This document shows, one piece after another, positions 857-12,112 of a stretch of DNA of 64,000 bases (the stretch's first letter is position 1; the number at the start of each line of letters is the position of its first letter). Under the pieces are notes generated by a model that made no database searches, was not told the DNA's origin, and saw only the letters and a list, made by a program, of their open reading frames with translations. Both the position numbers and the translations under genes were made by a program. Origin of the DNA: a virus; the IMG/VR virus record IMGVR_UViG_3300036773_000146, positions 64,001 to 128,000 of that record; one strand, written 5' to 3'.

Positions 857-1225
857 TCATCCTGATTCGTGGTACCTCAGCGGCCCATGAACCAGGACGT
901 ACTTGGCAAGGACGTCCCGCGAGATCCGGCCGCGCTCGTTCACCTTGAGCCCCTGCTTGGCCGCCCACGCCCGGATGGCGAGGGACTCGGCCTTGTGGGC
1001 CTCCTTGGGCGTCATGCCCTCGGTGATCTGCAAGTCCATCACGGGCGTGGCCGCGTCGACGAACTCCTGCAGGCGCTGGCGCAGGTCGGTCGCGTTCTCC
1101 TTGCTCAGATCGATCATGTAGTTGATCCCGTCCAGGCCGAAGATGAGCTGCTCGTCGGCCACCACCTGGTGGCCCCGCGCGCGTTCGAGGTCGTCCACCT
1201 TCTGCCGGATGACCTGCTCTGCCAT
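857..1225 (-). CDS. lsr2: Lsr2-like nucleoid-associated protein
   Basis: VDDL..., FGLDGINYMIDLSKENA dimerisation domain; IRAWAAKQGLKVNERGRIS AT-hook domain; RBS GAAAGG. Confidence 0.93.
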   Translation of the reverse strand: MAEQVIRQKVDDLERARGHQVVADEQLIFGLDGINYMIDLSKENATDLRQRLQEFVDAATPVMDLQITEGMTPKEAHKAESLAIRAWAAKQGLKVNERGRISRDVLAKYVLVHGPLRYHESG

Positions 1226-1359
1226 CGTCTGCCTTTCGAGCGAGTTTCGCGTGTAATTTCCCAGAGTTCTGAGGAGATCCGAGCGTATCTCGATCACCTC
1301 TTTCACCGCAATGGCACCGGTATAAGCAGTGCCTTTTCGAGCTGATAAGAGTACTAATT

Positions 1360-1389
1360 GAGCCCGGGAGGAGTGGCCCTCCCGGGCTC
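1360..1389 (-). terminator. stem-loop terminator downstream of the endonuclease VII gene
   Basis: 12-bp inverted repeat GAGCCCGGGAGG/CCTCCCGGGCTC, followed by AT-rich sequence. Confidence 0.7.
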
Positions 1390-1394
1390 GGGGA

Positions 1395-2243
1395 CTACAG
1401 GCGCGAGCGGCACACCGGGCCGATCCCGGCCGTGTCCTGGAGGTACTTCAACAGCTTGGCCACACGGTCCGGGCAGTCAGCGACCATGCCAGCCGAAGAG
1501 TTGCACGCTCCGCACAGCAAGCCCCTGAACTCCCCGGTGGAGTGATCATGATCGACGTGAACCCGATTGCCCGGCTCGGGCGTCCCTTCCCACCCGCAGG
1601 CTTCGCAGCGATTGCCCACCTGCGCCAACCTGTCCAGCACCGCGTCTGCGTCCACTTTGAGCGTTCTGGCACTTTGCCGGAGAGCGCGGTAGAGCCACCT
1701 TTCTGGGTCGGCCTTCCACAGCTCCCGGTCTTTGTCCCTAGCCGCCTTCCTGCGCTCCTCGTACACGTCCGGGCTGTCAGCTTTTAGAGTGCGGAGCCGA
1801 TCCCTGGTCTCGCGAGCAGCGCAGTCCCGGCATCGGGACCGAAGCCTGGTACTCCCGTGCGTGGTCTTCCGCCACCCGAATTCCTCGACCGGCTTGGTCA
1901 ACCCGCAACCGGTGCACTCCTTCTCCGCCTTCGGCGGCTCGAAAGACTTCTCGTAGCAGATGGCGCAGACGTTGCTGCCCTTTCGCTTCTCCCGGCCGCA
2001 GGGGCAGGCATCGCTGCGCACCGACTGGTCGTAGTGCCGAGCGCAAAGGCCCTTGCTGCGCACCGGCTCTCCGCAGTCATCCAGCACGCAGACGCGCCCT
2101 TTGGCTGGCTGGTACTTCGGCAGTGTCGGCCCGACGTCCTTGCGACCGCTTCGGATCCAACGGTCGTAGTGGAGGGCGCAGAGCCCCTTGGTCCTCGGCG
2201 GCTCTGCGCATCCGCCCACTTCGCATTCTGTGGAATCTGTCAC
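1395..2243 (-). CDS. free-standing endonuclease VII-family (HNH) homing endonuclease with N-terminal Zn-binding repeats
   Basis: VHVDHDHSTGEFRGLLCGACN motif; two CxxxxC...KGLCxxHY repeats and a CxxC...CxxC finger. Confidence 0.88.
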   Translation of the reverse strand: MTDSTECEVGGCAEPPRTKGLCALHYDRWIRSGRKDVGPTLPKYQPAKGRVCVLDDCGEPVRSKGLCARHYDQSVRSDACPCGREKRKGSNVCAICYEKSFEPPKAEKECTGCGLTKPVEEFGWRKTTHGSTRLRSRCRDCAARETRDRLRTLKADSPDVYEERRKAARDKDRELWKADPERWLYRALRQSARTLKVDADAVLDRLAQVGNRCEACGWEGTPEPGNRVHVDHDHSTGEFRGLLCGACNSSAGMVADCPDRVAKLLKYLQDTAGIGPVCRSRL

Positions 2244-2821
2244 GAGAGGTTAGTGTAACAAGTCGGGCCGATGCCTCGGCTTCTGGACACCTCGTCGGTG
2301 AGCGTCCGGCCGCAAACGCCGCACTCGCCGATCTCCTTGCCGTAGCGGGCCGTCGCCTCCAGGACGCCATCCGACTCGATCTTCCGGAGCACGGAGCGGG
2401 CGACCACGAACGGCAGCTCGCGCTCCTCGTCCGAAGCCATCACCGCGACGGTGACGTAGCCGGTCTTGGACACCCGCACCCGGTAGAAGGCGGTCTCGCC
2501 GTCCTTGTTGTCCACGGCGTAGCGGCCGTCCGGCACCTCGGGCAGCTTTGGGCGCGGCGTGCGGTCCTCGCGAGGGTCGACCTGCTGGCCCAGCCGGTGC
2601 TCGTTGCGCTCGTCCTTCAGCGCGCTGATGGTGTCGCTGGCCTTGGCGGCGGTGAGCTGACCGGCCTGGTCCTGGGCGCGCAGCTCGAACCACAGCTGAC
2701 GGCCGCGCTCCACGTCGTACTCGGCGATCTGGGTAAGCAGGTCCGTCAAGAAGTCGATCTGGCCCTGGCTGCGCTGGCGCGGGGCGCTGGCGGTGCGGGG
2801 GAAGTTGCGGGTCGAGTTCAT
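2240..2821 (-). CDS. DUF6011-type Zn-finger protein
   Basis: C-terminal CGVCGRTLTDEVSRSRGIGPTC motif. Confidence 0.75.
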   Translation of the reverse strand: MNSTRNFPRTASAPRQRSQGQIDFLTDLLTQIAEYDVERGRQLWFELRAQDQAGQLTAAKASDTISALKDERNEHRLGQQVDPREDRTPRPKLPEVPDGRYAVDNKDGETAFYRVRVSKTGYVTVAVMASDEERELPFVVARSVLRKIESDGVLEATARYGKEIGECGVCGRTLTDEVSRSRGIGPTCYTNLS

Positions 2822-2857
2822 CGTGGCCTCCGGTGCGGCTGCGTGCTGACCTCGTTG

Positions 2858-2886
2858 ACACTACCCTTCCGGGTAGTCTTCGTCAA
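2858..2886 (-). promoter_or_regulatory. sigma70/HrdB-type promoter with palindromic operator
   Basis: TTGACG-17-TAGTGT on minus strand; ACTACCCTTCCGGGTAGT at 2860-2877. Confidence 0.75.
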
Positions 2887-3250
2887 CACTGATCATGATA
2901 GTCAGCTTGTCGGATCCCATCGGCTCGACCAGGAAGGACCGGCCCCAGTCGTTCGCCTCGGTGCCGATCCGGCGCTGCACGACGTCCACCCACACCCAGA
3001 ATGCGGCCCAGTCGCCGGGCCGGACCCGCGAGGAGATCTTCAGGTCCGCAAGCCACGGATACTGCTCGCAGACATGCCTATCGGCCATGTCGAGCAGGAG
3101 GCTCGGGAGGAACCGCGCGGGGATGGGCAGACCGGTCAGGTGGGTCATCAGCGCGGAAAGAGAACGCGTCTCGCCCGGCACGAGCAGGATCGTGCGCATC
3201 CGCAGGGCCAGCAGGTCGGCCAGGTGGAAACCGGCCTGCTCGCGGATCAT
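2861..3250 (-). CDS. hypothetical protein
   Basis: ATG overlapping upstream stop (ATGA); GC3-rich codons. Confidence 0.6.
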   Translation of the reverse strand: MIREQAGFHLADLLALRMRTILLVPGETRSLSALMTHLTGLPIPARFLPSLLLDMADRHVCEQYPWLADLKISSRVRPGDWAAFWVWVDVVQRRIGTEANDWGRSFLVEPMGSDKLTIMISVDEDYPEG

Positions 3251-3591
3251 GCCCGGCCCCAAGCCAGATCGACCACCTTCTCCAGCGGCTCGCCCGCGCG
3301 ATCGCGATCCAGCGCGGTATTGAGTGCGTCGATTCCCTCGGCGAGCGATTCGCCGACCCGCTCCTCGGTCACCCCGGGTGGCATCATGACCGTCCGGGAG
3401 TGCCAGTAACCGTCGATCGACACCGTCGGCGTGGCCACGTGCAGAACGGGGACGGAGATGACGCCACCGGGCGCCGACGGATTGGGCAGCATGGTCATGA
3501 AGACCGTCCAGTCGAGGTCGAAGGACGGCGGCTCGGCCTTCAGCCGGGCCCGGACGGACTCGCTCAGGGCGAGCACGGTTTCGCGGTTCAT
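3247..3591 (-). CDS. hypothetical protein
   Basis: RBS GAGGAGGA, 114 aa. Confidence 0.65.
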   Translation of the reverse strand: MNRETVLALSESVRARLKAEPPSFDLDWTVFMTMLPNPSAPGGVISVPVLHVATPTVSIDGYWHSRTVMMPPGVTEERVGESLAEGIDALNTALDRDRAGEPLEKVVDLAWGRA

Positions 3592-3592
3592 G

Positions 3593-3838
3593 TCAGTCCT
3601 CCTCGTCGTCGAACAGCAGGGTCTCCACTTGATCGAAGTTCAAGCGGACATGTCCCTTGCCGTCGCGGGTCGGGGCGACCACTTCCGGCTCGACCCCGAT
3701 CTCCCGCAACCAGGAGCGGATCTCCCGGGCGTGCTCGGCGTGCTGGCGGGCCTCGGGCGTGTCCGGCACGCGCTGTTCGCGCGCTGTGCGGACACGCTGG
3801 CGGCCACGCGGATATGCGGGATGGTCGACGCCACTCAT
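3593..3838 (-). CDS. hypothetical protein
   Basis: RBS GGAGGAGG before ATG at 3838. Confidence 0.6.
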   Translation of the reverse strand: MSGVDHPAYPRGRQRVRTAREQRVPDTPEARQHAEHAREIRSWLREIGVEPEVVAPTRDGKGHVRLNFDQVETLLFDDEED

Positions 3839-3914
3839 CGCTGCCTCCTCCAGTGCGGAATTCAACTACCCGTCATCCTCTCACACGGACGCGGCCAGCC
3901 ACGGTCACGCGAGA

Positions 3915-6731
3915 TCATCGGACGGCCGGACTGTTGCTCCAGTCGGCCGGGGCGGCCAGCGACTCGGGGTGCTCCGCAGCACGCTGGTGGCACAGGAACA
4001 GCTCCTGCATGAGTCCTTTTTGGTCCAGTGCCTTCTCGACGGCGTTCCTCGCGTCCCACCAGCCCTCGCCCTGCGGGCCGAAGGCGTCCGAGCGGTTGCT
4101 GTGCACGAACTCCCACAGCGCGCTGCCGTTCTGCGTCCGGTACGGCTCGGGCATCTTGAGGATGCCCTCGGCCATCAGGATGATCCCGTGCACCTCGTCG
4201 GCGAGTCCCTGGCCCTCGGGGAAGCTGGCCATGGACCAGTCGGGCAGGTCCGGCGGCCGGACGATCCAGGTCTCGGTCACCACGTCCCAGGCCGCGTACG
4301 GCCGGATCAGCCGGATGTCCCAGCCGAGCAGGTTGGCAAACCAGGTTTCGTCCCACACGCCCTCGATACCGGGAAAGCGCTTCTGCGGGTCGTTCAGCTC
4401 GGCGTGCATCTGCTGGGTCAGCCCGGTGGCGATCTGGTCGTCGGTGGCGCCCAGGAAGCTCGGATTACTCTCCCGGAAGCGCATGTAGTGGATCCCGATC
4501 GAGAGGTCGAAGTCGTTGTTCCCGTGCAGGGTCTTCGAGGTCCAGGTGGAGGCCTCTGATCCGAAGAACACGACCTTCGCCCAGGTCTCGTGACCGACGT
4601 AGCCGTGCCGCGTGCAGAACGCGTCGAAGGAGGCCATGATGTCGGTGCGCACCGGCTCCTTGAGCCGCGCGTCTTCCCAGATGCGGGTGTCCAGGCCGTA
4701 GGTCCGGCCGAACAGCCGCTCCCTGGGCGCGGTGTAGCGGGCCTCGTGCGGGATGGGGCTCCGCGTGAGCCGGGAGAAGGTTCCCGCCGCGTCCGGGCCG
4801 AGGTGCTGGTGGTAGAGCTGGTGCGCGGCCTGCTGGAACTCCGGCCCGTGGCCGCCCGCTCCCTCACCGGTGCCTGTGAGGATGTGGGCCATCTCGTGCA
4901 ACAGGGTCAGGTCGTTCGTGTGCTCGCCGGACAGCCCGATGTGGTTGAGCCCGTCCGTGGTGGCCTGGCCGGAGTCCGGCTTCCGCAGGTCCCAGTGTTT
5001 CGGGTGCACCTGGATGCCGCCGGGATGTCCATGCTCAGCCAGCACACCGTTGACGAACTCGTGCACAGGCCGGTGCGCCTCGGCGCGCGCGGGGTTGTCC
5101 CAATGCATGGCGGGCACGTGCCAATCCCGGCCCGCGTGCCCGGCGCGTTCCATGGCCTCCTCGGCCACCGACACGCGATCCTCGTCGGAGAGCACGGCGT
5201 TGCGCCGGATGCCCTGCTCATAGGTCTCGTCGTGGTTGCCCGCGCTGAGCACGTGCAGCTCGTCGCCGACGGTGCGGTGCACCACGCGGGTCTTGAAGTT
5301 GAGGTTGGTGGCCTGCCAGCCCTTCAGCGGCCCGTTGAGCGCGTGCGTGGACGCGTGGCTGTTCCCGCGCCGCAGGTCGTCCACGCGGTCGTGGTAGGCC
5401 AGCTGGACGGGCTTGGACAGACGCCGGAGGTCGGAGGCGACCTTCGGGTGTTCGGCTAGCGCCTTGAGCGGCGCGCCGATGGAGTCCCGGCCGGAACCCG
5501 GGGCCACGTCCGATGGTCGTCCCGCGTCCTCATCGTCAGCTCGGCGCGCCACGTCGGGTGCATCGTGACGTGGCTTGCCTTTGCCTGCCGTACGGCCATG
5601 GTTCTCCTCTTTGTGGCGCGGGTCCAGGTGCTCCCAGTGGTCCACCGTGACCGGGGTGTCGTGGAAGGCGATCGCCGACTTGTGGCTCTCCGGCCCCTCG
5701 TGGGAGTTGCCGTAGACGATCCCGTCGTGGCCCCGGTCCTTCAGGTGGGCCAGGAAGCCGTCGGAAATCGCGTGGCGCTTCGGGTGGTGCCCGAGCCACG
5801 TCTCTTTCTGGTGCAGAGAGGCGTCCTCGGTGCCGAACTCGTCGATCTCGTCCACGTTCGGGTCCGGGTGACGGCCGTGATGCAGGCCGCGATCCCGGGC
5901 CCAGCCGATCGCGTGGTCGGTCAGCTCGTGCTCGTTCTCGTAGTCGGCCGGGTTGGCCATGTGCAGCCGCGCGTGCGCGACCCGGCTGTCCGGCGAGGCG
6001 CCCTTGCGGATGGCGATCTGCTTGGCCACGTCGCGCAGGGCCGTGTAGTGGGTGCCGAGGTCGGTGGACCAGTTCTCCGCGTGAGCACCCTCGTAATCCC
6101 AGCGCGGCGACTTCGGCGCACCCTCGTACGGCGTCGCGGTGCCGTGGTACCAGTGCTTGCCCTCCGGGCCGCCAAGGCCGTGCCCGAGATCCGCGTAGGG
6201 GTTGGGGTGCGACGGCGGCACCTCGGCCGCCGCGCGGCTAAAACCCAGACGGCGGTTGGTGACGTCCAGGGATTCGACGCCATTCCGGTGGGCCATCCGA
6301 TCCGCGAGGATCCGGTGGTGCCCCCCCGCGATCCAGTGCTGGCCCTCGTGTTCCCAGGTGTGAGGCTCGCCCGGTCGGGGCCCGATTCCGCCCCCGCCGG
6401 TGTACGGATGGCGGATGTAGTGCTCCAGGCCACTTTTGTACAGCGTGTCCTGCGAGGTGTGCAACGGGACGTCCGGCCGATGGTGCACAGGGACGCCTTC
6501 GTGCTGGGGGACCGCGTGGTCGTCGTCGACCTCTCCGGCCTCCCAGGGGTCCTCGTCGTGCAGATGAATGTTGTGCTCGCGCATCAACTGCGCGGCGTCG
6601 CGGCCCTGGATCAGCTCGTCGAGGCCGTCCAGGCGGTACAGGGCATGCCGCTGCGCGTCGTCGAGCCCATCGGACGCCGTGACGTACCGGTGCAGCGCGG
6701 CCCGCCCGCGCTTGATCCTCATCGCCGCCAC
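3915..6731 (-). CDS. polyvalent protein: ParB/Srx-like + ADP-ribosyltransferase-like + RelE/ParE-like + SprT-like zinc peptidase + pol-beta nucleotidyltransferase (start may be ATG 6722)
   Basis: WIAGGHHRI; WYHGT..LGTHYT..GHDGIVYGNSHE; ASDLRRL..HALNGPLKGW..RVVH..GNHDETY; LLHEMAH..GHGPEF; FFGSEAS..NDFDL. Confidence 0.8.
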   Translation of the reverse strand: MAAMRIKRGRAALHRYVTASDGLDDAQRHALYRLDGLDELIQGRDAAQLMREHNIHLHDEDPWEAGEVDDDHAVPQHEGVPVHHRPDVPLHTSQDTLYKSGLEHYIRHPYTGGGGIGPRPGEPHTWEHEGQHWIAGGHHRILADRMAHRNGVESLDVTNRRLGFSRAAAEVPPSHPNPYADLGHGLGGPEGKHWYHGTATPYEGAPKSPRWDYEGAHAENWSTDLGTHYTALRDVAKQIAIRKGASPDSRVAHARLHMANPADYENEHELTDHAIGWARDRGLHHGRHPDPNVDEIDEFGTEDASLHQKETWLGHHPKRHAISDGFLAHLKDRGHDGIVYGNSHEGPESHKSAIAFHDTPVTVDHWEHLDPRHKEENHGRTAGKGKPRHDAPDVARRADDEDAGRPSDVAPGSGRDSIGAPLKALAEHPKVASDLRRLSKPVQLAYHDRVDDLRRGNSHASTHALNGPLKGWQATNLNFKTRVVHRTVGDELHVLSAGNHDETYEQGIRRNAVLSDEDRVSVAEEAMERAGHAGRDWHVPAMHWDNPARAEAHRPVHEFVNGVLAEHGHPGGIQVHPKHWDLRKPDSGQATTDGLNHIGLSGEHTNDLTLLHEMAHILTGTGEGAGGHGPEFQQAAHQLYHQHLGPDAAGTFSRLTRSPIPHEARYTAPRERLFGRTYGLDTRIWEDARLKEPVRTDIMASFDAFCTRHGYVGHETWAKVVFFGSEASTWTSKTLHGNNDFDLSIGIHYMRFRESNPSFLGATDDQIATGLTQQMHAELNDPQKRFPGIEGVWDETWFANLLGWDIRLIRPYAAWDVVTETWIVRPPDLPDWSMASFPEGQGLADEVHGIILMAEGILKMPEPYRTQNGSALWEFVHSNRSDAFGPQGEGWWDARNAVEKALDQKGLMQELFLCHQRAAEHPESLAAPADWSNSPAVR

Positions 6732-7147
6732 GTCCGGTGCTGCCAGTCGTCGCCGTCCCGGTCGTACAGCTCCGCCACATCCGGCGGCGGCTCCATCTCG
6801 TGGCTGACGACGAACCCGACGGGACTGCGCGCATCACCGGACCGTGGGTAGCGCTGGCGACCTTGTGCGTCCAGCTCCGGATCGGACTCCACATGATGGT
6901 CGCTGCCGATCGGGTGCACGGCGTAGACCCGGGGCCGCCCGGGACTCACGGGATCACGATCGGAATGCTGCCCATGTGCCTCGCTGGCGTACTCCCAGGC
7001 GTCCTGGAGGTTCGTGGTGGCGTAGGCGTAATTCGGGTCGGACAGGTGATGGTCGTGCAAGGTGCCCGCGCCGTGCTGCGTCGCCGGGAGGATGTGCGTC
7101 ACGTGCGGAACCGACGTGCCGTGGTAGTAGAAGTCCAGCTCCGGCAT
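6719..7147 (-). CDS. Arr-family (rifampin ADP-ribosyltransferase-like) NAD+-dependent ART
   Basis: FYYHGT, YAYATTNLQDAWEYA, PRVYAVHPIG..ESDP, RSPVGFVV.E motifs; RBS GAGGAG. Confidence 0.78.
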   Translation of the reverse strand: MPELDFYYHGTSVPHVTHILPATQHGAGTLHDHHLSDPNYAYATTNLQDAWEYASEAHGQHSDRDPVSPGRPRVYAVHPIGSDHHVESDPELDAQGRQRYPRSGDARSPVGFVVSHEMEPPPDVAELYDRDGDDWQHRTWRR

Positions 7148-7157
7148 ACCCGCTCCT

Positions 7158-7970
7158 CTACAGTCCGTGCCGCTGGCGCAGCGTGTCCAGCACCCACTTG
7201 CCGTCGCGGAATTGCCCGACCGGCCGACCGGCCAGCGGGGTCTCCTGCTTCGGCGTCGGCTGCTTGGCTGCCAGCTTCTCGCCCTTGGCGGCCCAGTGGG
7301 TCTTCTGTTCGTCAGTGGCCGGGTAAAGGTGCGCGAACGAGTGGTATCCCTCAGGCGGGTTCTCGCGTTCGTGCTCGGGCAGGTGCGAGTACTTCTGCTG
7401 CCAGCCGCCGTGATCCTTCATCGCATCCGGATCGAGCTTCGGGTGCAGGTACTTTTCCGAGAAGTCGTGCAGGTCGAAGTAGGCCTTTTGCCGCTGATCG
7501 ACGGCGAACTTGCGCACGTCGCCCTCGTCCTTGAAGTGCCTGCTGGCGTCGAGGTAGACCTTGTTCTCCGCGCGGTCGAGCCAGCCGCCCTGGTAGCTGT
7601 CCGGCTTGGCCAGGTGCTCGGCGGCGGCCTGCCGGTGCGCGGCGATGTGCTCGGGCTGGATGTCCTTCAGATCATGGACGGTGGCCATCCCCGAGCCCTC
7701 GGGCGCGTGGTAGGAGGCCATGAAGCCGGACGACGGAGCACCACCGCGCGCCGGGTGACTGGAGAAGCCGCCGTTGGCCACCAGGTCGTGCAGACGGCCG
7801 TGGTCGTACTCGTTACTGCCCGAGGGCGCGGTGGCCGTCCGATGACCGGCTGAGGCCCCCGCAATGGCATTCAGTGCCTCCTGCGGGTCATCCGGCAGGA
7901 ACAGGTGGACGAAGCGGCCGCCGGACTTGGCGGCCGTGTGCAGTCCCCACAGCGAGGGCTCGAAGGTCAT
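7158..7970 (-). CDS. hypothetical protein with possible SAM-lyase-like domain
   Basis: GGFS..GFMAS..GGWLD...KVYLDAS.....QKAYFDL pattern; ATG 7970 with GGGAG RBS. Confidence 0.55.
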   Translation of the reverse strand: MTFEPSLWGLHTAAKSGGRFVHLFLPDDPQEALNAIAGASAGHRTATAPSGSNEYDHGRLHDLVANGGFSSHPARGGAPSSGFMASYHAPEGSGMATVHDLKDIQPEHIAAHRQAAAEHLAKPDSYQGGWLDRAENKVYLDASRHFKDEGDVRKFAVDQRQKAYFDLHDFSEKYLHPKLDPDAMKDHGGWQQKYSHLPEHERENPPEGYHSFAHLYPATDEQKTHWAAKGEKLAAKQPTPKQETPLAGRPVGQFRDGKWVLDTLRQRHGL

Positions 7971-8005
7971 GGGGGCTCCCGAGGCAGAAGAGGCGGTCTT
8001 CGCCT

Positions 8006-8036
8006 GTTGGTGCGCCGAGGTCAGTCCTCGTGCAGG
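8006..8036 (-). promoter_or_regulatory. putative phage late promoter (variant)
   Basis: CCTGCA-N18-CACCAAC, same spacing as the motifs upstream of sheath, baseplate and lysis genes. Confidence 0.45.
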
Positions 8037-8647
8037 TGATGCAGGTGGTGGCCGACGGCCTTGATGGCCACGTAACCGCCGACGATGGCGCCGGTGGCGA
8101 TCAGCGCGTTGCGCCGCTCGATCCGCTCCTGGTCGGAGAAGAACTCGTCGAACCGGGCACCGAGCTGCTTGGTGTAGTCGACCTCGGCGGCCTTGCGGCG
8201 CTTGCGGCCGATCCACAGGGCGACGAACGGCAGGGCGAACCAGGTGTAGACGACCACCGGGCCGACGGCGCCGATCAGGCCGCACGAGAGCACGAGGTAG
8301 ATCCCCACCCAGCGCAGAGCGTAGGTCCAGCGCTTGGCGTCGGCGGCCGCGCGGCGCTCGAAGCGGGCGTTGATCCGGCGTGCGTTCTTCAGGCTCGGCA
8401 TGCCGTACTGACGGCCGTCGCGGCGATCGCGGTACCAGTACACGCCGTGGCTCTCGGCCTCGAAAACCAGGTGCTGGCGGGCGTCGGCCGCGCGGTGCGG
8501 GTAGGTCTCGTCCCACACCTGCCACTCCGGTGCTTCCTGCTCCGGCTCCTCGACGGTGAACTCGGCGTCCTCGATCGGGTGCTCGGCGCGGTGCATCGCC
8601 ATGACCTCGTCCCAGCTGAGCGGGCGGAAGTCGTTCGTGTCGGTCAT
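8021..8647 (-). CDS. membrane protein
   Basis: three hydrophobic stretches; RBS GAAGGG. Confidence 0.7.
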   Translation of the reverse strand: MTDTNDFRPLSWDEVMAMHRAEHPIEDAEFTVEEPEQEAPEWQVWDETYPHRAADARQHLVFEAESHGVYWYRDRRDGRQYGMPSLKNARRINARFERRAAADAKRWTYALRWVGIYLVLSCGLIGAVGPVVVYTWFALPFVALWIGRKRRKAAEVDYTKQLGARFDEFFSDQERIERRNALIATGAIVGGYVAIKAVGHHLHHLHED

Positions 8648-8919
8648 GCCGTTGCCCTTCGTTGTTCCAACCGGCTCACGGCCCGGAGGATGCTGTGCCA
8701 CTGCATGCCCATGCGGGCGACGATCTCGTCCTTGGTGCAGCCCTGCGACTGGAGTTCGCGCAGGTCCTGCTCCACATCCTCCGCCCGGTGCGACCGGCGG
8801 GGGAAGTCGACGTGCTGGCCCCGGTCGTAGAGGTAGCCGTAGCAGCGCAGGCACATCCCGCGCGCGGCGACGGGGCATTTCTTCCCGCACCGCGCGCAGG
8901 GGGCCTTCGGGCCGTACAT
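8644..8919 (-). CDS. Zn-finger + HTH DNA-binding protein
   Basis: CARC..RGMCLRCY followed by KDEIVARMGMQWHSILRAV. Confidence 0.65.
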   Translation of the reverse strand: MYGPKAPCARCGKKCPVAARGMCLRCYGYLYDRGQHVDFPRRSHRAEDVEQDLRELQSQGCTKDEIVARMGMQWHSILRAVSRLEQRRATA

Positions 8920-9107
8920 CAGGCCAGGTCCAGCTCGCGCTCGGCCAGGGCCTCGTCGAGCAGGCTGCGGAGGCTGGCCTTACCGGCGGCGCGGAGGCTG
9001 CGGCGGCTCTTGGCCTTGACCGAGGACGGCGCCATCGAGAGGCAGTCGATCCGGTAGTGCGAGAAGTGGCGGGCTTCGCGGTCACGGTGGGTGGCAATGG
9101 CGTTCAC
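8919..9107 (-). CDS. small basic hypothetical protein
   Basis: RBS AGGAGG before GTG at 9107. Confidence 0.55.
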   Translation of the reverse strand: MNAIATHRDREARHFSHYRIDCLSMAPSSVKAKSRRSLRAAGKASLRSLLDEALAERELDLA

Positions 9108-9145
9108 GAGGGACCTCCTGTGCGGTCTTCTTGGTGACACCACTG

Positions 9146-9174
9146 ATACTACCCGTCCGGGTAGTGACACGCAA
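9146..9174 (-). promoter_or_regulatory. sigma70-type promoter with palindromic operator
   Basis: TTGCGT-17-TAGTAT; ACTACCCGTCCGGGTAGT at 9148-9165. Confidence 0.75.
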
Positions 9175-9178
9175 GGGC

Positions 9179-11164
9179 CTATCTGCGGCCACGCCGATGG
9201 GCGTTGCGCGCCGGGTTCAGGCCGCCGCCGCGCACCATGTTCCGCACGGCCGGAGAGAGCTGATTGATCAGCGCCTGGTCCGGCGCCTGCTGCCGGGCGT
9301 ACGGGTTGAAGCCGCCCTGCTGGCCGAAGACCGGCTTCAGCTCGGAGAGCATGCCCTTGGACCAGGCCTGGACCTGGTCGGCCAGCAGGCGCCAGGTGAC
9401 CTCCATCATCGACTTGGCCACGTCGTCATGGACCACCGGGCCGGTGTCCTGGTGCACAACCCGGTTCGTCGTGGCCGTGGTCTTGAGCTGGAGGAACTTC
9501 AACTCCAGCTCGGCCGTCTCGTACTCCGGGGCCTCGACCCAGCCCTGGTTGATCGCGACCTTGAAGCACTCGGCCACCTGCCAGTTGTGCTGGGAGGTGG
9601 CCGTTTCTTCGTGGACGTCCATCCGCTTGGGCGCGCGGTGCTCGCGGACCCGGCGGACCAGGGTGGCGATCGGCATGGCGCTGTTGTGCTGGTCGAAGGT
9701 GAACTCGTCGACCTTGAACGCCCAGATCATGTCCCAGAGCCGATCAGTGACCTCCAGGTAGTCGATCGTGTTGTCCGGGAACTCCGACGGCATCCAGTGG
9801 TGGATCACGTCGAACCGGACCTTCATCAGGCCGGAGTCGTCGCCGAGGGGGACGGTGTGCGCGATGGCGAGGCCGAAATTGTCGTTGACCTTCGAGGGGT
9901 CGGCGTGGCCCGCGTATCGCATGGTCAGGTTCTCCGCCTCGGAGCGCATGGCCAGGTCCGGGTGGAAGATCGCCTCGACCTTGCGGGGATCCAGATAGGC
10001 GTCGACCACGGATTGCCACTGCGACCGGCGCTCGACGGCGAACGTGTCGGGATTCGAGCGCTCCAGCTTCTCCATGCGGTCGTCGAATTCCTGCACGGCG
10101 CCCTTGAGCGGCAGGAAACCCGGCTGCGCCTGGTCGACGTACTCATCGAGGTCCCCGCAGAAGTCCTCGGGGAACATCGGCAGCAGGTGCGCCTGGGCCC
10201 AGTCGTAGTAGATCTCCCAGCTGGTCAGCTGCAACATCATCATGTACGGGTAGACCGGCTCGTCGTCCTCGTCGGTCTCCAGGCTCATCTGCCAGTTCGC
10301 GTAGAACTGGCCGACCTGCTGCCAGGGCGAGCTGGGGTCGATGATGAAGCCGTCCAGCTTGAACTGGTCGAGCGACGGCGTGGCACTGGAGTACACCTCT
10401 TCGGCCGAGCGGTTGGCGCCGACGTTGACCACGTGCGCCATCTCGTCGAAGGCCAGCACGCAGGAGGCCGGGCCACGCGCGGACATCAGCGTGGCCTCCT
10501 TCGGCTGGATCGTGAAGGTCGCCAGGTCGCTCACGGTCTGGATGCCGCGCTTGGCGATCTTCTTCATCCGGACGAAGTCGTGCGGCGCGAAGACGGTGAG
10601 GTTCTCCCCCAGGGCCCGCGAGATGTACGGGGTGAAGCAGGGCGCGCCCCGGACGACGGCGACGACGTCCTTCCACAGGTTCTCCCGGGCCTGCTGCTTC
10701 TTGCCCGCGTAGACGAACAGCGCCAGCTGCTTGTCCCGGTCGATGCCGTAGTGGCCCTGCGGGTCGCCCTTGGCCATGAACTTCCAGAGCACGTAGCTCA
10801 TCGCCAGGGCACTGACGTAGCCCTTTCCGGCGCGGCGCCCGAGCACCAGCAGGACTTCGCGGAAGTAGTTGTAGCCCTGCAAGGCGAGGCTGGCCATGCG
10901 TGTCCGGATGCCAGGAGTGATGCCGTTGTTGCCGCTCTTGCGGAAGCTCTCCTCCCACTCGTCGAGCACCATGTGGTCGTACTCGGTGAGCAGGTCGTTA
11001 CGGAGGAAGATGACCTTGAGCAGAGTCGCCTGGCGCGGATACAGCTGCGGCCGGTTGCACCACTGCGGGCTGACCACGAATGTGATCGGGTCCGGGACGT
11101 CCAGCCCGGTAAAAAGCTGAAAGTCCAGCGGCTTGAGCTGCGGCAGCGCCAGGCGAGTCGGCAT
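9179..11164 (-). CDS. terL: terminase large subunit
   Basis: LYPRQ adenine-binding motif, Walker A GRRAGKG, Walker B LAFDEMAH, nuclease HADPS..D, FDQHNS, HDD. Confidence 0.92.
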   Translation of the reverse strand: MPTRLALPQLKPLDFQLFTGLDVPDPITFVVSPQWCNRPQLYPRQATLLKVIFLRNDLLTEYDHMVLDEWEESFRKSGNNGITPGIRTRMASLALQGYNYFREVLLVLGRRAGKGYVSALAMSYVLWKFMAKGDPQGHYGIDRDKQLALFVYAGKKQQARENLWKDVVAVVRGAPCFTPYISRALGENLTVFAPHDFVRMKKIAKRGIQTVSDLATFTIQPKEATLMSARGPASCVLAFDEMAHVVNVGANRSAEEVYSSATPSLDQFKLDGFIIDPSSPWQQVGQFYANWQMSLETDEDDEPVYPYMMMLQLTSWEIYYDWAQAHLLPMFPEDFCGDLDEYVDQAQPGFLPLKGAVQEFDDRMEKLERSNPDTFAVERRSQWQSVVDAYLDPRKVEAIFHPDLAMRSEAENLTMRYAGHADPSKVNDNFGLAIAHTVPLGDDSGLMKVRFDVIHHWMPSEFPDNTIDYLEVTDRLWDMIWAFKVDEFTFDQHNSAMPIATLVRRVREHRAPKRMDVHEETATSQHNWQVAECFKVAINQGWVEAPEYETAELELKFLQLKTTATTNRVVHQDTGPVVHDDVAKSMMEVTWRLLADQVQAWSKGMLSELKPVFGQQGGFNPYARQQAPDQALINQLSPAVRNMVRGGGLNPARNAHRRGRR

Positions 11165-11451
11165 CAGAGCAGACCGATCTCCGCGCCGTGCCGGGCGAGG
11201 AACTCGGGCCAGGACATCTCCACTCCGTCGGAAGTGCGCACCCGGCGCGGTGCCTCCTCGCCCTCGGGGGTCTCGACGAGGTCCCACGCCACGGCGAACA
11301 GCTCGCCGAGGCGCTTGCCGACCTTCTCCGCGCGGGCGATCGCGGCCGCCTTGTCGTCGGCCTTCACCTCGGTCATGCCGAAGGCGGTACCGCCGGGCAG
11401 GCCGGTGGTCTTCGAGGTGCGGCGATAGATCGCCGTCGCCTGGATGGTCAT
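11164..11451 (-). CDS. hypothetical protein
   Basis: TGATG coupling at both ends. Confidence 0.6.
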   Translation of the reverse strand: MTIQATAIYRRTSKTTGLPGGTAFGMTEVKADDKAAAIARAEKVGKRLGELFAVAWDLVETPEGEEAPRRVRTSDGVEMSWPEFLARHGAEIGLL

Positions 11452-11696
11452 CAGTGCTGGCGTCCCTTCATCACAGGCGGGTTGAGCCGGAACAGCAGGT
11501 ACGTAAAGGCCGCAACCGAGAGGAAGGCTGCGCCCGAAATCAGGTCCGACCTGAAGGCGTAATGCAGCGCACCGCTGGGGTCGCTCCCCTGGATATGGGA
11601 AAAATCCAGGACGGCCGAGTACAGCACGCCGCACCCCACCAGGAAGAAGACCTGCGCCAGGAGCAGCAATCGCGGCACGGAACGGAAGGCGCTCAT
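11451..11696 (-). CDS. small membrane protein
   Basis: two TM segments, TGATG coupling. Confidence 0.6.
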   Translation of the reverse strand: MSAFRSVPRLLLLAQVFFLVGCGVLYSAVLDFSHIQGSDPSGALHYAFRSDLISGAAFLSVAAFTYLLFRLNPPVMKGRQH

Positions 11697-12112
11697 CAGT
11701 GCTGGTGCCCCTTCGTCATCTCGCGGACGATCTGGTCGAGGTTCTTCTCCGCCTTGATCTGGCCGGGCTGCGCGCCCGGCAGCTGCAAGATGTTCGACTG
11801 CACCTCGTGGGCCATCTGCTCGTGGTCGAACTCGTGGGCATCGATCCGGCCGTTAACGGTGATGTCGAAGGACCAGAGGCCCTTGACCTCTTCCACCATC
11901 GGCTCGCGGGTGATCGGGTGGTAGCCCTTGACCTCGCCGGTGTAGAAGGTGTTCACGGCCACGTCGAAGCCGATTGCGGCGAACTTCTCCTTGGCCATGT
12001 CCACGAAGTCCTGCGGGTTCATCCGGGAGTCGCGTAGGGCGTTCAGCTCCCGGATCACCGCCTCCATCTTGAGGATCTCGGTGTCGTAGGGCATGGCGAT
12101 CGAGTGGGTCAC
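11696..12112 (-). CDS. hypothetical protein (packaging region)
   Basis: GTGA overlap, GC3-rich codons. Confidence 0.65.
   Translation of the reverse strand: MTHSIAMPYDTEILKMEAVIRELNALRDSRMNPQDFVDMAKEKFAAIGFDVAVNTFYTGEVKGYHPITREPMVEEVKGLWSFDITVNGRIDAHEFDHEQMAHEVQSNILQLPGAQPGQIKAEKNLDQIVREMTKGHQH

Follow-up and report, generated by a model that had tools for sequence, protein, structure and literature searches.

A probable five-enzyme polyvalent protein encoded near the large terminase gene of an actinobacterial myovirus

Introduction

Polyvalent proteins are proteins of phages and plasmids in which 2-15 disparate domains are joined (Iyer, Burroughs, Anand, de Souza and Aravind 2017, PMC5512222). 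They have been proposed to enter the cell together with the DNA and are thought to act on the host early (PMC5512222). In this class, zincin peptidases are the processing hubs and ADP-ribosyltransferases (ARTs) the commonest protein modifiers; GNAT, Pol-beta nucleotidyltransferase (NTase) and DdrB-like ParB domains also occur, RelE-fold (BECR) RNases are present in up to 26% of the proteins, and a minimal firmicute NTase fused to ArdC-N has been described (PMC5512222). For ARTs encoded beside terminase and portal genes, it has been argued that they are packaged (PMC9503650). Here, a gene for a protein that resembles this class is described from the virus record IMGVR_UViG_3300036773_000146 (149,735 bp; GC content 65-70%), of which bases 64001-128000, that is, a window of 64,000 nucleotides, were analysed.

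The best explanation for this gene, and in our judgement a probable one, is that it encodes a five-enzyme polyvalent effector protein of an actinobacterial myovirus of about 150 kb. The modules of the protein have recognizable folds and retain the signature residues of these folds, they are shuffled among related proteins, the NTase keeps a fixed place at the C-terminus, and the gene is located close to the terminase gene.

Results

Five modules in one chain

The open reading frame (ORF) at 3915-6731 on the minus strand is a single frame that encodes 938 amino acids (aa) if translation begins at the GTG at 6731. The database gene call (P0002) begins at Met4, the ATG at 6722, which gives 935 aa and is the likely start; together with the stop codon of the gene before it, this ATG forms the overlap ATGA. 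The GC content at third codon positions of the ORF is 0.91, coding-like for a genome with 67% GC. The gene and its modules are as follows.

3915..6722, minus strand: gene for the polyvalent protein (935 aa), ATG at 6722, stop codon at 3915-3917
6237..6674, minus strand: module A (aa 20-165), conserved N-terminal extension plus putative ParB/sulfiredoxin-fold core (aa 75-165)
5607..6224, minus strand: module B (aa 170-375), predicted ADP-ribosyltransferase fold with a helical insert
5196..5459, minus strand: module C (aa 425-512), RelE/YoeB/YafQ-type RNase domain
4752..5195, minus strand: module D (aa 513-660), predicted SprT-type zincin metallopeptidase
3918..4751, minus strand: module E (aa 661-938), putative nucleotidyltransferase core of the Pol-beta superfamily and a helical lobe at the C-terminus

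A preliminary description of this DNA, made from the letters of the sequence, had picked out motifs in this frame and read them as five domains. All the motifs are present at the positions given there:

6312-6326, minus strand: GGHHR (aa 136-140)
6138-6152, minus strand: WYHGT (aa 194-198)
5697-5732, minus strand: GHDGIVY..E (aa 334-345)
5220-5240, minus strand: GNHDETY (aa 498-504)
4884-4898, minus strand: HEMAH (aa 612-616)
4836-4853, minus strand: GHGPEF (aa 627-632)
4506-4562, minus strand: GS...DFD (aa 724-742)

These motifs are not chance occurrences because they are invariant or nearly so in the alignments of the relatives. The five domain assignments were each upheld by separate tests, namely structure comparison, profiles, Pfam and alignments.

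The protein is a chain of five unrelated enzyme modules that are swapped among relatives in the manner of cassettes. In BLAST comparisons with 47 homologues, which come from metagenomic contigs, many of them of 150-157 kb, five blocks (A, 1-170; B, 165-385; C, 375-512; D, 505-665; E, 660-938) are present or absent independently of each other. The full string is carried by the query and a single 96%-identical homologue (P0003), and module E forms the C-terminal end in approximately 43 of the 47. The relatives also contain additional modules, namely GNAT (21 of 47), as well as an Arr-like ART, a 2H phosphoesterase and a small Cys/His unit, and further ART copies bring the number to as many as three per locus. 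When 1.84 billion representative proteins were searched exhaustively, 492 matches at E <= 0.001 were obtained, mostly via module E, which is found in chains as long as 3,306 aa as well as in stand-alone proteins of about 300 aa. In cultured Streptomyces phages, too, module E stands alone, as in gene 178 of phage GiJojo (L090), which encodes a hypothetical protein of 329 aa and has endolysin and hydrolase genes on either side. Scans of viral contigs with the single modules C, D and A recovered at most one locus each, already known.

With the whole protein as query, Pfam and PHROGs gave nothing beyond a sub-threshold SprT match, to which an NCBIfam scan added TIGR04338 as the sole further result; the profile of the whole-family alignment had no match in the PDB.

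Folds and signature residues of the modules

Module D has the metal-site motifs H612-E613-x-x-H616 and G-H628-G-P-E-F. The Pfam SprT-like family PF10263 scores 26.7 bits with the module alone, against a cut-off of 25.6, and 24.2 bits, just under the cut-off, with the whole protein. An eight-sequence profile of the module matched human Spartan (6mdx/6mdw, E 2e-3) with HExxH and GHGPEF aligned, and the NCBIfam model TIGR04338 (HEXXH_Rv0185 family) matched with E 1.5e-5. These sequence matches support the assignment of module D as a SprT-type zincin.

For module C, the PDB search with a six-sequence profile (A9) gave YoeB as the best match (6l8e, E 3.9e-5; 7bwf, E 4.7e-5), followed by RelK, YafQ, E. 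coli YoeB, HP0892/HP0894 and RelE. All nine matches belong to the RelE superfamily and extend over the full length, as exemplified by YoeB, where residues 5-81 of 92 are aligned with 5-87 of 88, and a four-sequence profile returned the same list. Conserved positions are T462-H463, T475, R482, H485, H500-D501 and Y504. The T-H pair, which is invariant, is located at the position of YoeB Glu46 and YafQ His50, and the likewise invariant C-terminal H-D-x-x-Y parallels YafQ His87/Phe91, whereas YoeB Arg65 has no conserved counterpart. Among the neighbouring ORFs, no match to an antitoxin family was found with Pfam and PHROGs, so that module C is not part of a toxin-antitoxin pair.

The fold assignments of modules A, B and E rest on the Z-scores of VIA structure comparison and on the consistency of the match lists; in Foldseek searches against the PDB, neither of the two models, one for A plus B and one for E, had a match at E <= 0.001. 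The AlphaFold2 model of aa 1-385, built with 37 sequences, has a mean predicted local distance difference test score (pLDDT) of 82.7. In this model, aa 75-165 match seven chains of ParB/sulfiredoxin fold with Z 4.0-5.9, namely plant sulfiredoxin 6ky4 (Z 5.9, 78 residues aligned), human sulfiredoxin 1yzs (5.2), SerK 5x0b (5.1), SbnI (4.8), PadC (4.7), KorB (4.2) and Atu1540 (4.0). The core motif W-I-A-G-G-H-H-R occupies aa 133-140, and within the narrow module A family of 12 proteins G137, H138, H139 and R140 are invariant; G-G-H-H-R takes the place of G-G-C-H-R in sulfiredoxin. Thus, the model supports a ParB/sulfiredoxin fold for module A, an assignment that is made at the fold level because Pfam ParB_N did not match the module.

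For aa 168-376, VIA listed almost exclusively ARTs: the pre-ejectosome of cyanophage A4 on top (9k3a_B, Z 8.7, 161 residues aligned), then diphtheria toxin (7.1), PARP-1 (6.7), MbcT (6.6) and ParT (6.0), and at lower ranks RES, NatT, exotoxin A, the AcrIF11-type 6kyf, DarT and Arr. The Foldseek list is likewise dominated by ART folds, again with 9k3a_B first (E 1.1e-3). At the sequence level, the module B profile had no match in the PDB, and PF18760 (ART-PolyVal; gathering cut-off 31.2 bits) did not match the query. PF18760 is nevertheless the commonest family among the module B sequences (3 of 17) and matches several homologues, always below the cut-off (best 26.1 bits). In the module B alignment (A4), H196 (in WYHGT), H228 (in G-T-H-[YF]-T), H253, G334-H335-D336-G337 and E345 are conserved. 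With respect to the H-Y-E/D triad of ARTs, H196 and E345 are thus conserved, and H228 is invariant. Taken together, the modelled structure supports an ART fold for module B. As a side observation, the related loci L014, L008, L010, L011, L013 and L041 each contain two or three copies of the ART-like module B, and these copies fall into two sequence subtypes, QGHDG and QGHHG/QGHRG.

Module E, with a model pLDDT of 93.8, was aligned from 82 sequences taken from cut-out viral loci (alignment A2; module residue 1 corresponds to aa 660). G65, S69, D81, T137, P152, Y153, H218 and R221 are invariant in module numbering, and S66 and D83 are shared by 90% or more of the 82 sequences. In the numbering of the protein, this gives the signature G724-S725...D740-x-D742, located on model strands 59-64 and 81-88, together with the invariant residues P811-Y812, H877 and R880; D805 is a candidate for the third acidic residue. 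The sequence profile had no match in the PDB, and a Pfam scan that included PF01909 was also negative. The VIA matches of the N-terminal lobe are minimal NTases (1ylq, Z 5.8; 8xeh; 1no5) and CCA-adding enzymes, with Z 5.0-5.8. Nearly all of the best 50 Foldseek rows against the PDB belong to the Pol-beta superfamily (ANT(4'), AadA, AAD(9), CCA enzymes, Cid1, CD-NTases and MNT), with E >= 0.016 and none significant. In BFVD there are 11 viral matches at E <= 1e-3, one of which is named nucleotidyltransferase, and in the ESM Atlas the template modelling (TM) score to viral clusters is 0.64-0.74, one of the clusters being 85% PF01909. We read module E as a divergent, two-lobed NTase family of tailed phages, which is not covered by any Pfam or NCBIfam model.

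Linkers, junction motifs and histidine content

Modules B and C are separated by a linker whose initial motif recurs in the family, and motifs of the Arg-x-Ala type mark the N-terminus and each of the junctions between modules.

5460..5606, minus strand: flexible B/C linker (aa 376-424), low complexity, begins H-G-R-T-A-G-K-G-K-P-R-H; pLDDT < 50 at aa 377-385
aa 8-14: junction motif KRGRAAL, pLDDT < 50
aa 164-169: junction motif FSRAAA, pLDDT < 50
aa 378-385: junction motif HGRTAGKG, with HGRTAG (aa 378-383) at pLDDT < 50
aa 507-513: junction motif GIRRNAV
aa 662-669: junction motif EARYTAP

The three motifs that fall into stretches of low pLDDT give modest, model-based support to the view that the linkers are exposed. 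The pattern G-R-T-[AIVL]-[AGS] occurs 37 times in 184 family proteins versus 3.2 times in shuffled sequences, an enrichment that is inflated because the family proteins share ancestry. It is placed after GNAT, before module C, on either side of module B and after module E. The generic R-x-A occurs 12 times in the protein, which is not clearly over expectation. The junction motif may be a cleavage site, a loading tag or a recombination joint.

The composition of the protein is unusual for this phage in that histidine makes up 8.4% of the residues, whereas ten other large proteins that the phage encodes contain 1.7%. The histidine content is 10.6-11.8% in modules A, B and D, with the highest value in module B (11.8%). 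The protein contains two cysteines, both within module E.

Source virus and neighbouring genes

The virus record has direct terminal repeats and was judged complete. The genome codes for tail components (sheath, baseplate wedge and a large tail protein) as well as for a DNA polymerase, a DnaB-type helicase and a UvsX-type recombinase, and the source is probably an approximately 150-kb myovirus of actinobacteria with a Streptomyces-type host. A megablast search of cultured phage genomes with the gene gave no match, and with tblastn, module E alone was matched, in four Streptomyces phages. The following genes are located upstream of the polyvalent gene.

9179..11287, minus strand: large terminase subunit (TerL) gene, 2.4 kb upstream of the polyvalent gene and on the same strand
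6719..7147, minus strand: Arr-like small ADP-ribosyltransferase gene (P0184), 142 aa, translationally coupled upstream gene

In tblastn comparisons, the terminase shares about 32% identity with its counterparts in Rhodococcus phage E3 and in Mycobacterium myoviruses of about 155 kb (cluster-C-type). Fourteen related viral loci likewise have TerL a few kilobases upstream and in the same orientation. The arrangement is also present in a cultured bacterium: on the circular plasmid pRLB1-9.1 (154 kb) of Streptomyces sp. RLB1-9 (NZ_CP041653.1; L002), a terminase gene with 49% identity precedes two polyvalent genes, which carry module E, two C modules and module B. This plasmid is probably a phage-plasmid of the same group, and its terminase-plus-polyvalent arrangement points to Streptomyces-type hosts.

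In the PDB, rifampin ADP-ribosyltransferase (2hw2/9iaf) was the one enzyme that the profile of the P0184 family (A8) matched, with E 5e-3; its alignment with Arr brings the H, Y and D positions together. In P0008, P0011, P0015 and P0101, the Arr-like module is fused into the polyvalent chain, and P0184 is therefore a detached member of the same module pool.

Further upstream, a 455-aa ORF at 7158-8525 (minus strand) was rejected as called, its first approximately 185 residues being Arg/Pro-rich out-of-frame text. The likely true gene is 7158-7970 (minus strand; 270 aa), which is conserved in L005 and has no family match. Downstream of the polyvalent gene, positions 1395-3865 (minus strand) of the window contain genes for a DUF6011 protein and an endonuclease VII/HNH protein as well as three small ORFs, of which those of 90 and 133 aa have conserved counterparts in relatives. 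A scan of window positions 1000-12000 for promoters and terminators revealed nothing informative.

Discussion

A possible course of events during infection can be outlined as follows. The polyvalent protein would be expressed together with the packaging genes, would enter the capsid and would reach the host along with the DNA, or would at least be active when infection starts. The SprT peptidase would then cut the flexible Arg-x-Ala linkers and thereby free the modules. Until cleavage the RelE-type RNase would be sterically masked and harmless, because RelE-family toxins must fit into the ribosomal A site. Module A would act as a ParB/sulfiredoxin-like NTP-dependent enzyme or nuclease and module B as an NAD-dependent ADP-ribosyltransferase, and the freed enzymes would modify host proteins, nucleic acids and mRNA, so that the defence is blunted and the cell taken over. 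The components of this outline differ in strength: to delivery with the DNA we give a chance that comes close to even, and self-processing by the zincin module is plausible and slightly more doubtful.

Several observations weigh against this explanation of the protein. Pfam and PHROGs revealed neither a MuF nor a portal domain, nor any other domain that would anchor the protein in the virion. The structural Z-scores of modules A and E are below 8, and in module B His228 appears to take the place of the triad Tyr, as judged by eye when its motif is set against the strand G-x-Y-F-[AST] that PARP and diphtheria toxin have. The shared ancestry that inflates the count of the junction pattern belongs here as well. 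Lastly, the head genes of the source virus are not adjacent to the terminase gene, and because TerL does not lie beside them, its proximity is a weaker sign of late co-expression than in other phages.

That these searches revealed no virion-association domain would fit if the same five enzymes were not packaged at all, but made in the infected cell for host shut-off, for the exclusion of competing phages or plasmids, or for the protection of phage DNA and RNA late in infection. This would also be in accordance with the location of the gene between the terminase gene and the endonuclease VII/DUF6011 cluster, not among head or tail genes, and with the stand-alone module E beside endolysin and hydrolase genes in GiJojo. 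Against it stand the linkage to TerL, conserved in the 14 loci, a class-level argument for delivery with the DNA (PMC5512222, PMC9503650) and the structural likeness between module B and part of a solved ejection protein; we regard an unpackaged protein as rather unlikely. A different target has also to be considered, namely that the Arr-like ART, the ANT-like NTase and GNAT form a family directed against chemical defence, which inactivates anti-phage antibiotics of actinomycetes (rifamycins, aminoglycosides) and not host macromolecules. The P0184 module with its rifampin ADP-ribosyltransferase match would fit, as would the top Foldseek rows of module E, where ANT(4'), AadA and AAD(9) share its two-lobe layout, and GNAT, the fold of aminoglycoside acetyltransferases, in 21 of the 47 relatives. 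However, the ANT matches are not significant (E >= 0.016, TM about 0.25), VIA places minimal protein-modifying NTases first, and the RelE, ParB and SprT modules have no role in such a scheme, which makes it highly improbable. The same low probability applies to a combined version, in which a capsid-delivered pro-enzyme polyprotein carries Arg-x-Ala tags that are read by its own SprT peptidase and its Arr-like ART, ANT-like NTase and GNAT cargo neutralises actinomycete antibiotics. If true, this would be the first phage counter-measure to chemical defence.

Finally, the RelE and ART folds are those of toxin-antitoxin systems, and the same terminase-plus-polyvalent arrangement is found on a 154-kb circular Streptomyces plasmid, so that an addiction or exclusion device of a phage-plasmid could be envisaged, with the RelE and ART modules killing cells that lose the element or are superinfected. 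However, an antitoxin-like neighbour was not revealed by Pfam and PHROGs; furthermore, the genome has terminal repeats and a replication set of lytic type, and the fusion to three enzymes that are not toxins would be left unaccounted for. We consider this the least credible of the explanations, and the five-enzyme polyvalent effector protein remains the one that is preferred here.

In the light of the polyvalent class, two points of the preliminary description are seen differently. It had not recognized the combination of domains, and the exact string is indeed rare (the query and P0003), but the kind of protein has already been described (PMC5512222). It had also regarded a RelE-type RNase without an adjacent antitoxin as notable. 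Pfam and PHROGs indeed revealed no antitoxin family among the neighbours, but an antitoxin-less RelE-fold RNase is not unusual within this class, because up to 26% of its members contain a BECR-fold RNase. Less usual for the class is that module C groups by sequence with the classical YoeB/YafQ toxins.

The single modules can be compared with their closest characterized counterparts. Module C shares fold and length with the toxins YoeB, YafQ and RelE, including the His at the YafQ H50/YoeB E46 site and, as in YafQ (H87/F91), a C-terminal His with an aromatic residue four positions on. In contrast to these toxins, it is part of a 935-aa chain that lacks a cognate antitoxin gene, and the YoeB R65 site is not conserved. 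Module D shares HExxH and the third-ligand motif GHGPEF with the SprT/Spartan zincins; the likeness is limited to the catalytic core, and the DNA-binding and ubiquitin-related regions are missing. The product of P0184 is similar to Arr rifampin ADP-ribosyltransferase in size (142 aa) and in the alignable H/Y/D positions, but differs in that the match reaches no more than E 5e-3 and that Pfam has no match. T4 Alt and the cyanophage A4 ejection protein are examples of ART-fold domains that reside inside the capsid and are released into the host with the DNA. However, Alt belongs to the R-S-E clade, and neither Alt nor the A4 protein has the other four modules. The text of the A4 paper on 9k3a makes no mention of ADP-ribosylation or an ART domain, and the structural match of module B suggests that the A4 ejection protein (9k3a chain B) may contain an ART-like domain that has passed unremarked.

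The class features that can be examined are all found in the protein: at least two disparate activities per polypeptide (five modules with five folds), origin from a mobile element (a virus with terminal repeats, terminase, tail sheath and baseplate) and a context of packaging genes (TerL 2.4 kb upstream, kept in 14 loci and on one plasmid). It is therefore classed with the polyvalent proteins already described, and we are highly confident that it belongs to the class of Iyer et al. 2017. The likeness comprises the repertoire (zincin, ART, ParB/sulfiredoxin-like domain, RelE-fold RNase and Pol-beta NTase, with GNAT and 2H in relatives) as well as the organization as a single polypeptide, the strong mosaicism among orthologues and the phage-borne location near packaging genes. 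The differences concern the details: the sequence of the RNase places it with YoeB/YafQ and outside the PBECR families, the peptidase is recognized by the SprT-like and not by the MPTase-PolyVal model, the ART appears to have a His at the usual Tyr position, MuF, portal and RNA polymerase modules are absent, and the NTase, in contrast to the minimal firmicute NTase, is two-lobed, has about 270 aa and forms a constant C-terminal anchor. Thus, the combination of modules is new and the kind of protein is known, since the class was described by Iyer et al. 2017, and the general picture of polyvalent proteins is unchanged by this finding. With a relative on a plasmid of a cultured Streptomyces strain, packaging, processing and the single enzymes are directly accessible to experiment. 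The protein adds to the polyvalent class an actinobacterial, terminase-linked branch with clean module boundaries and a constant C-terminal nucleotidyltransferase.

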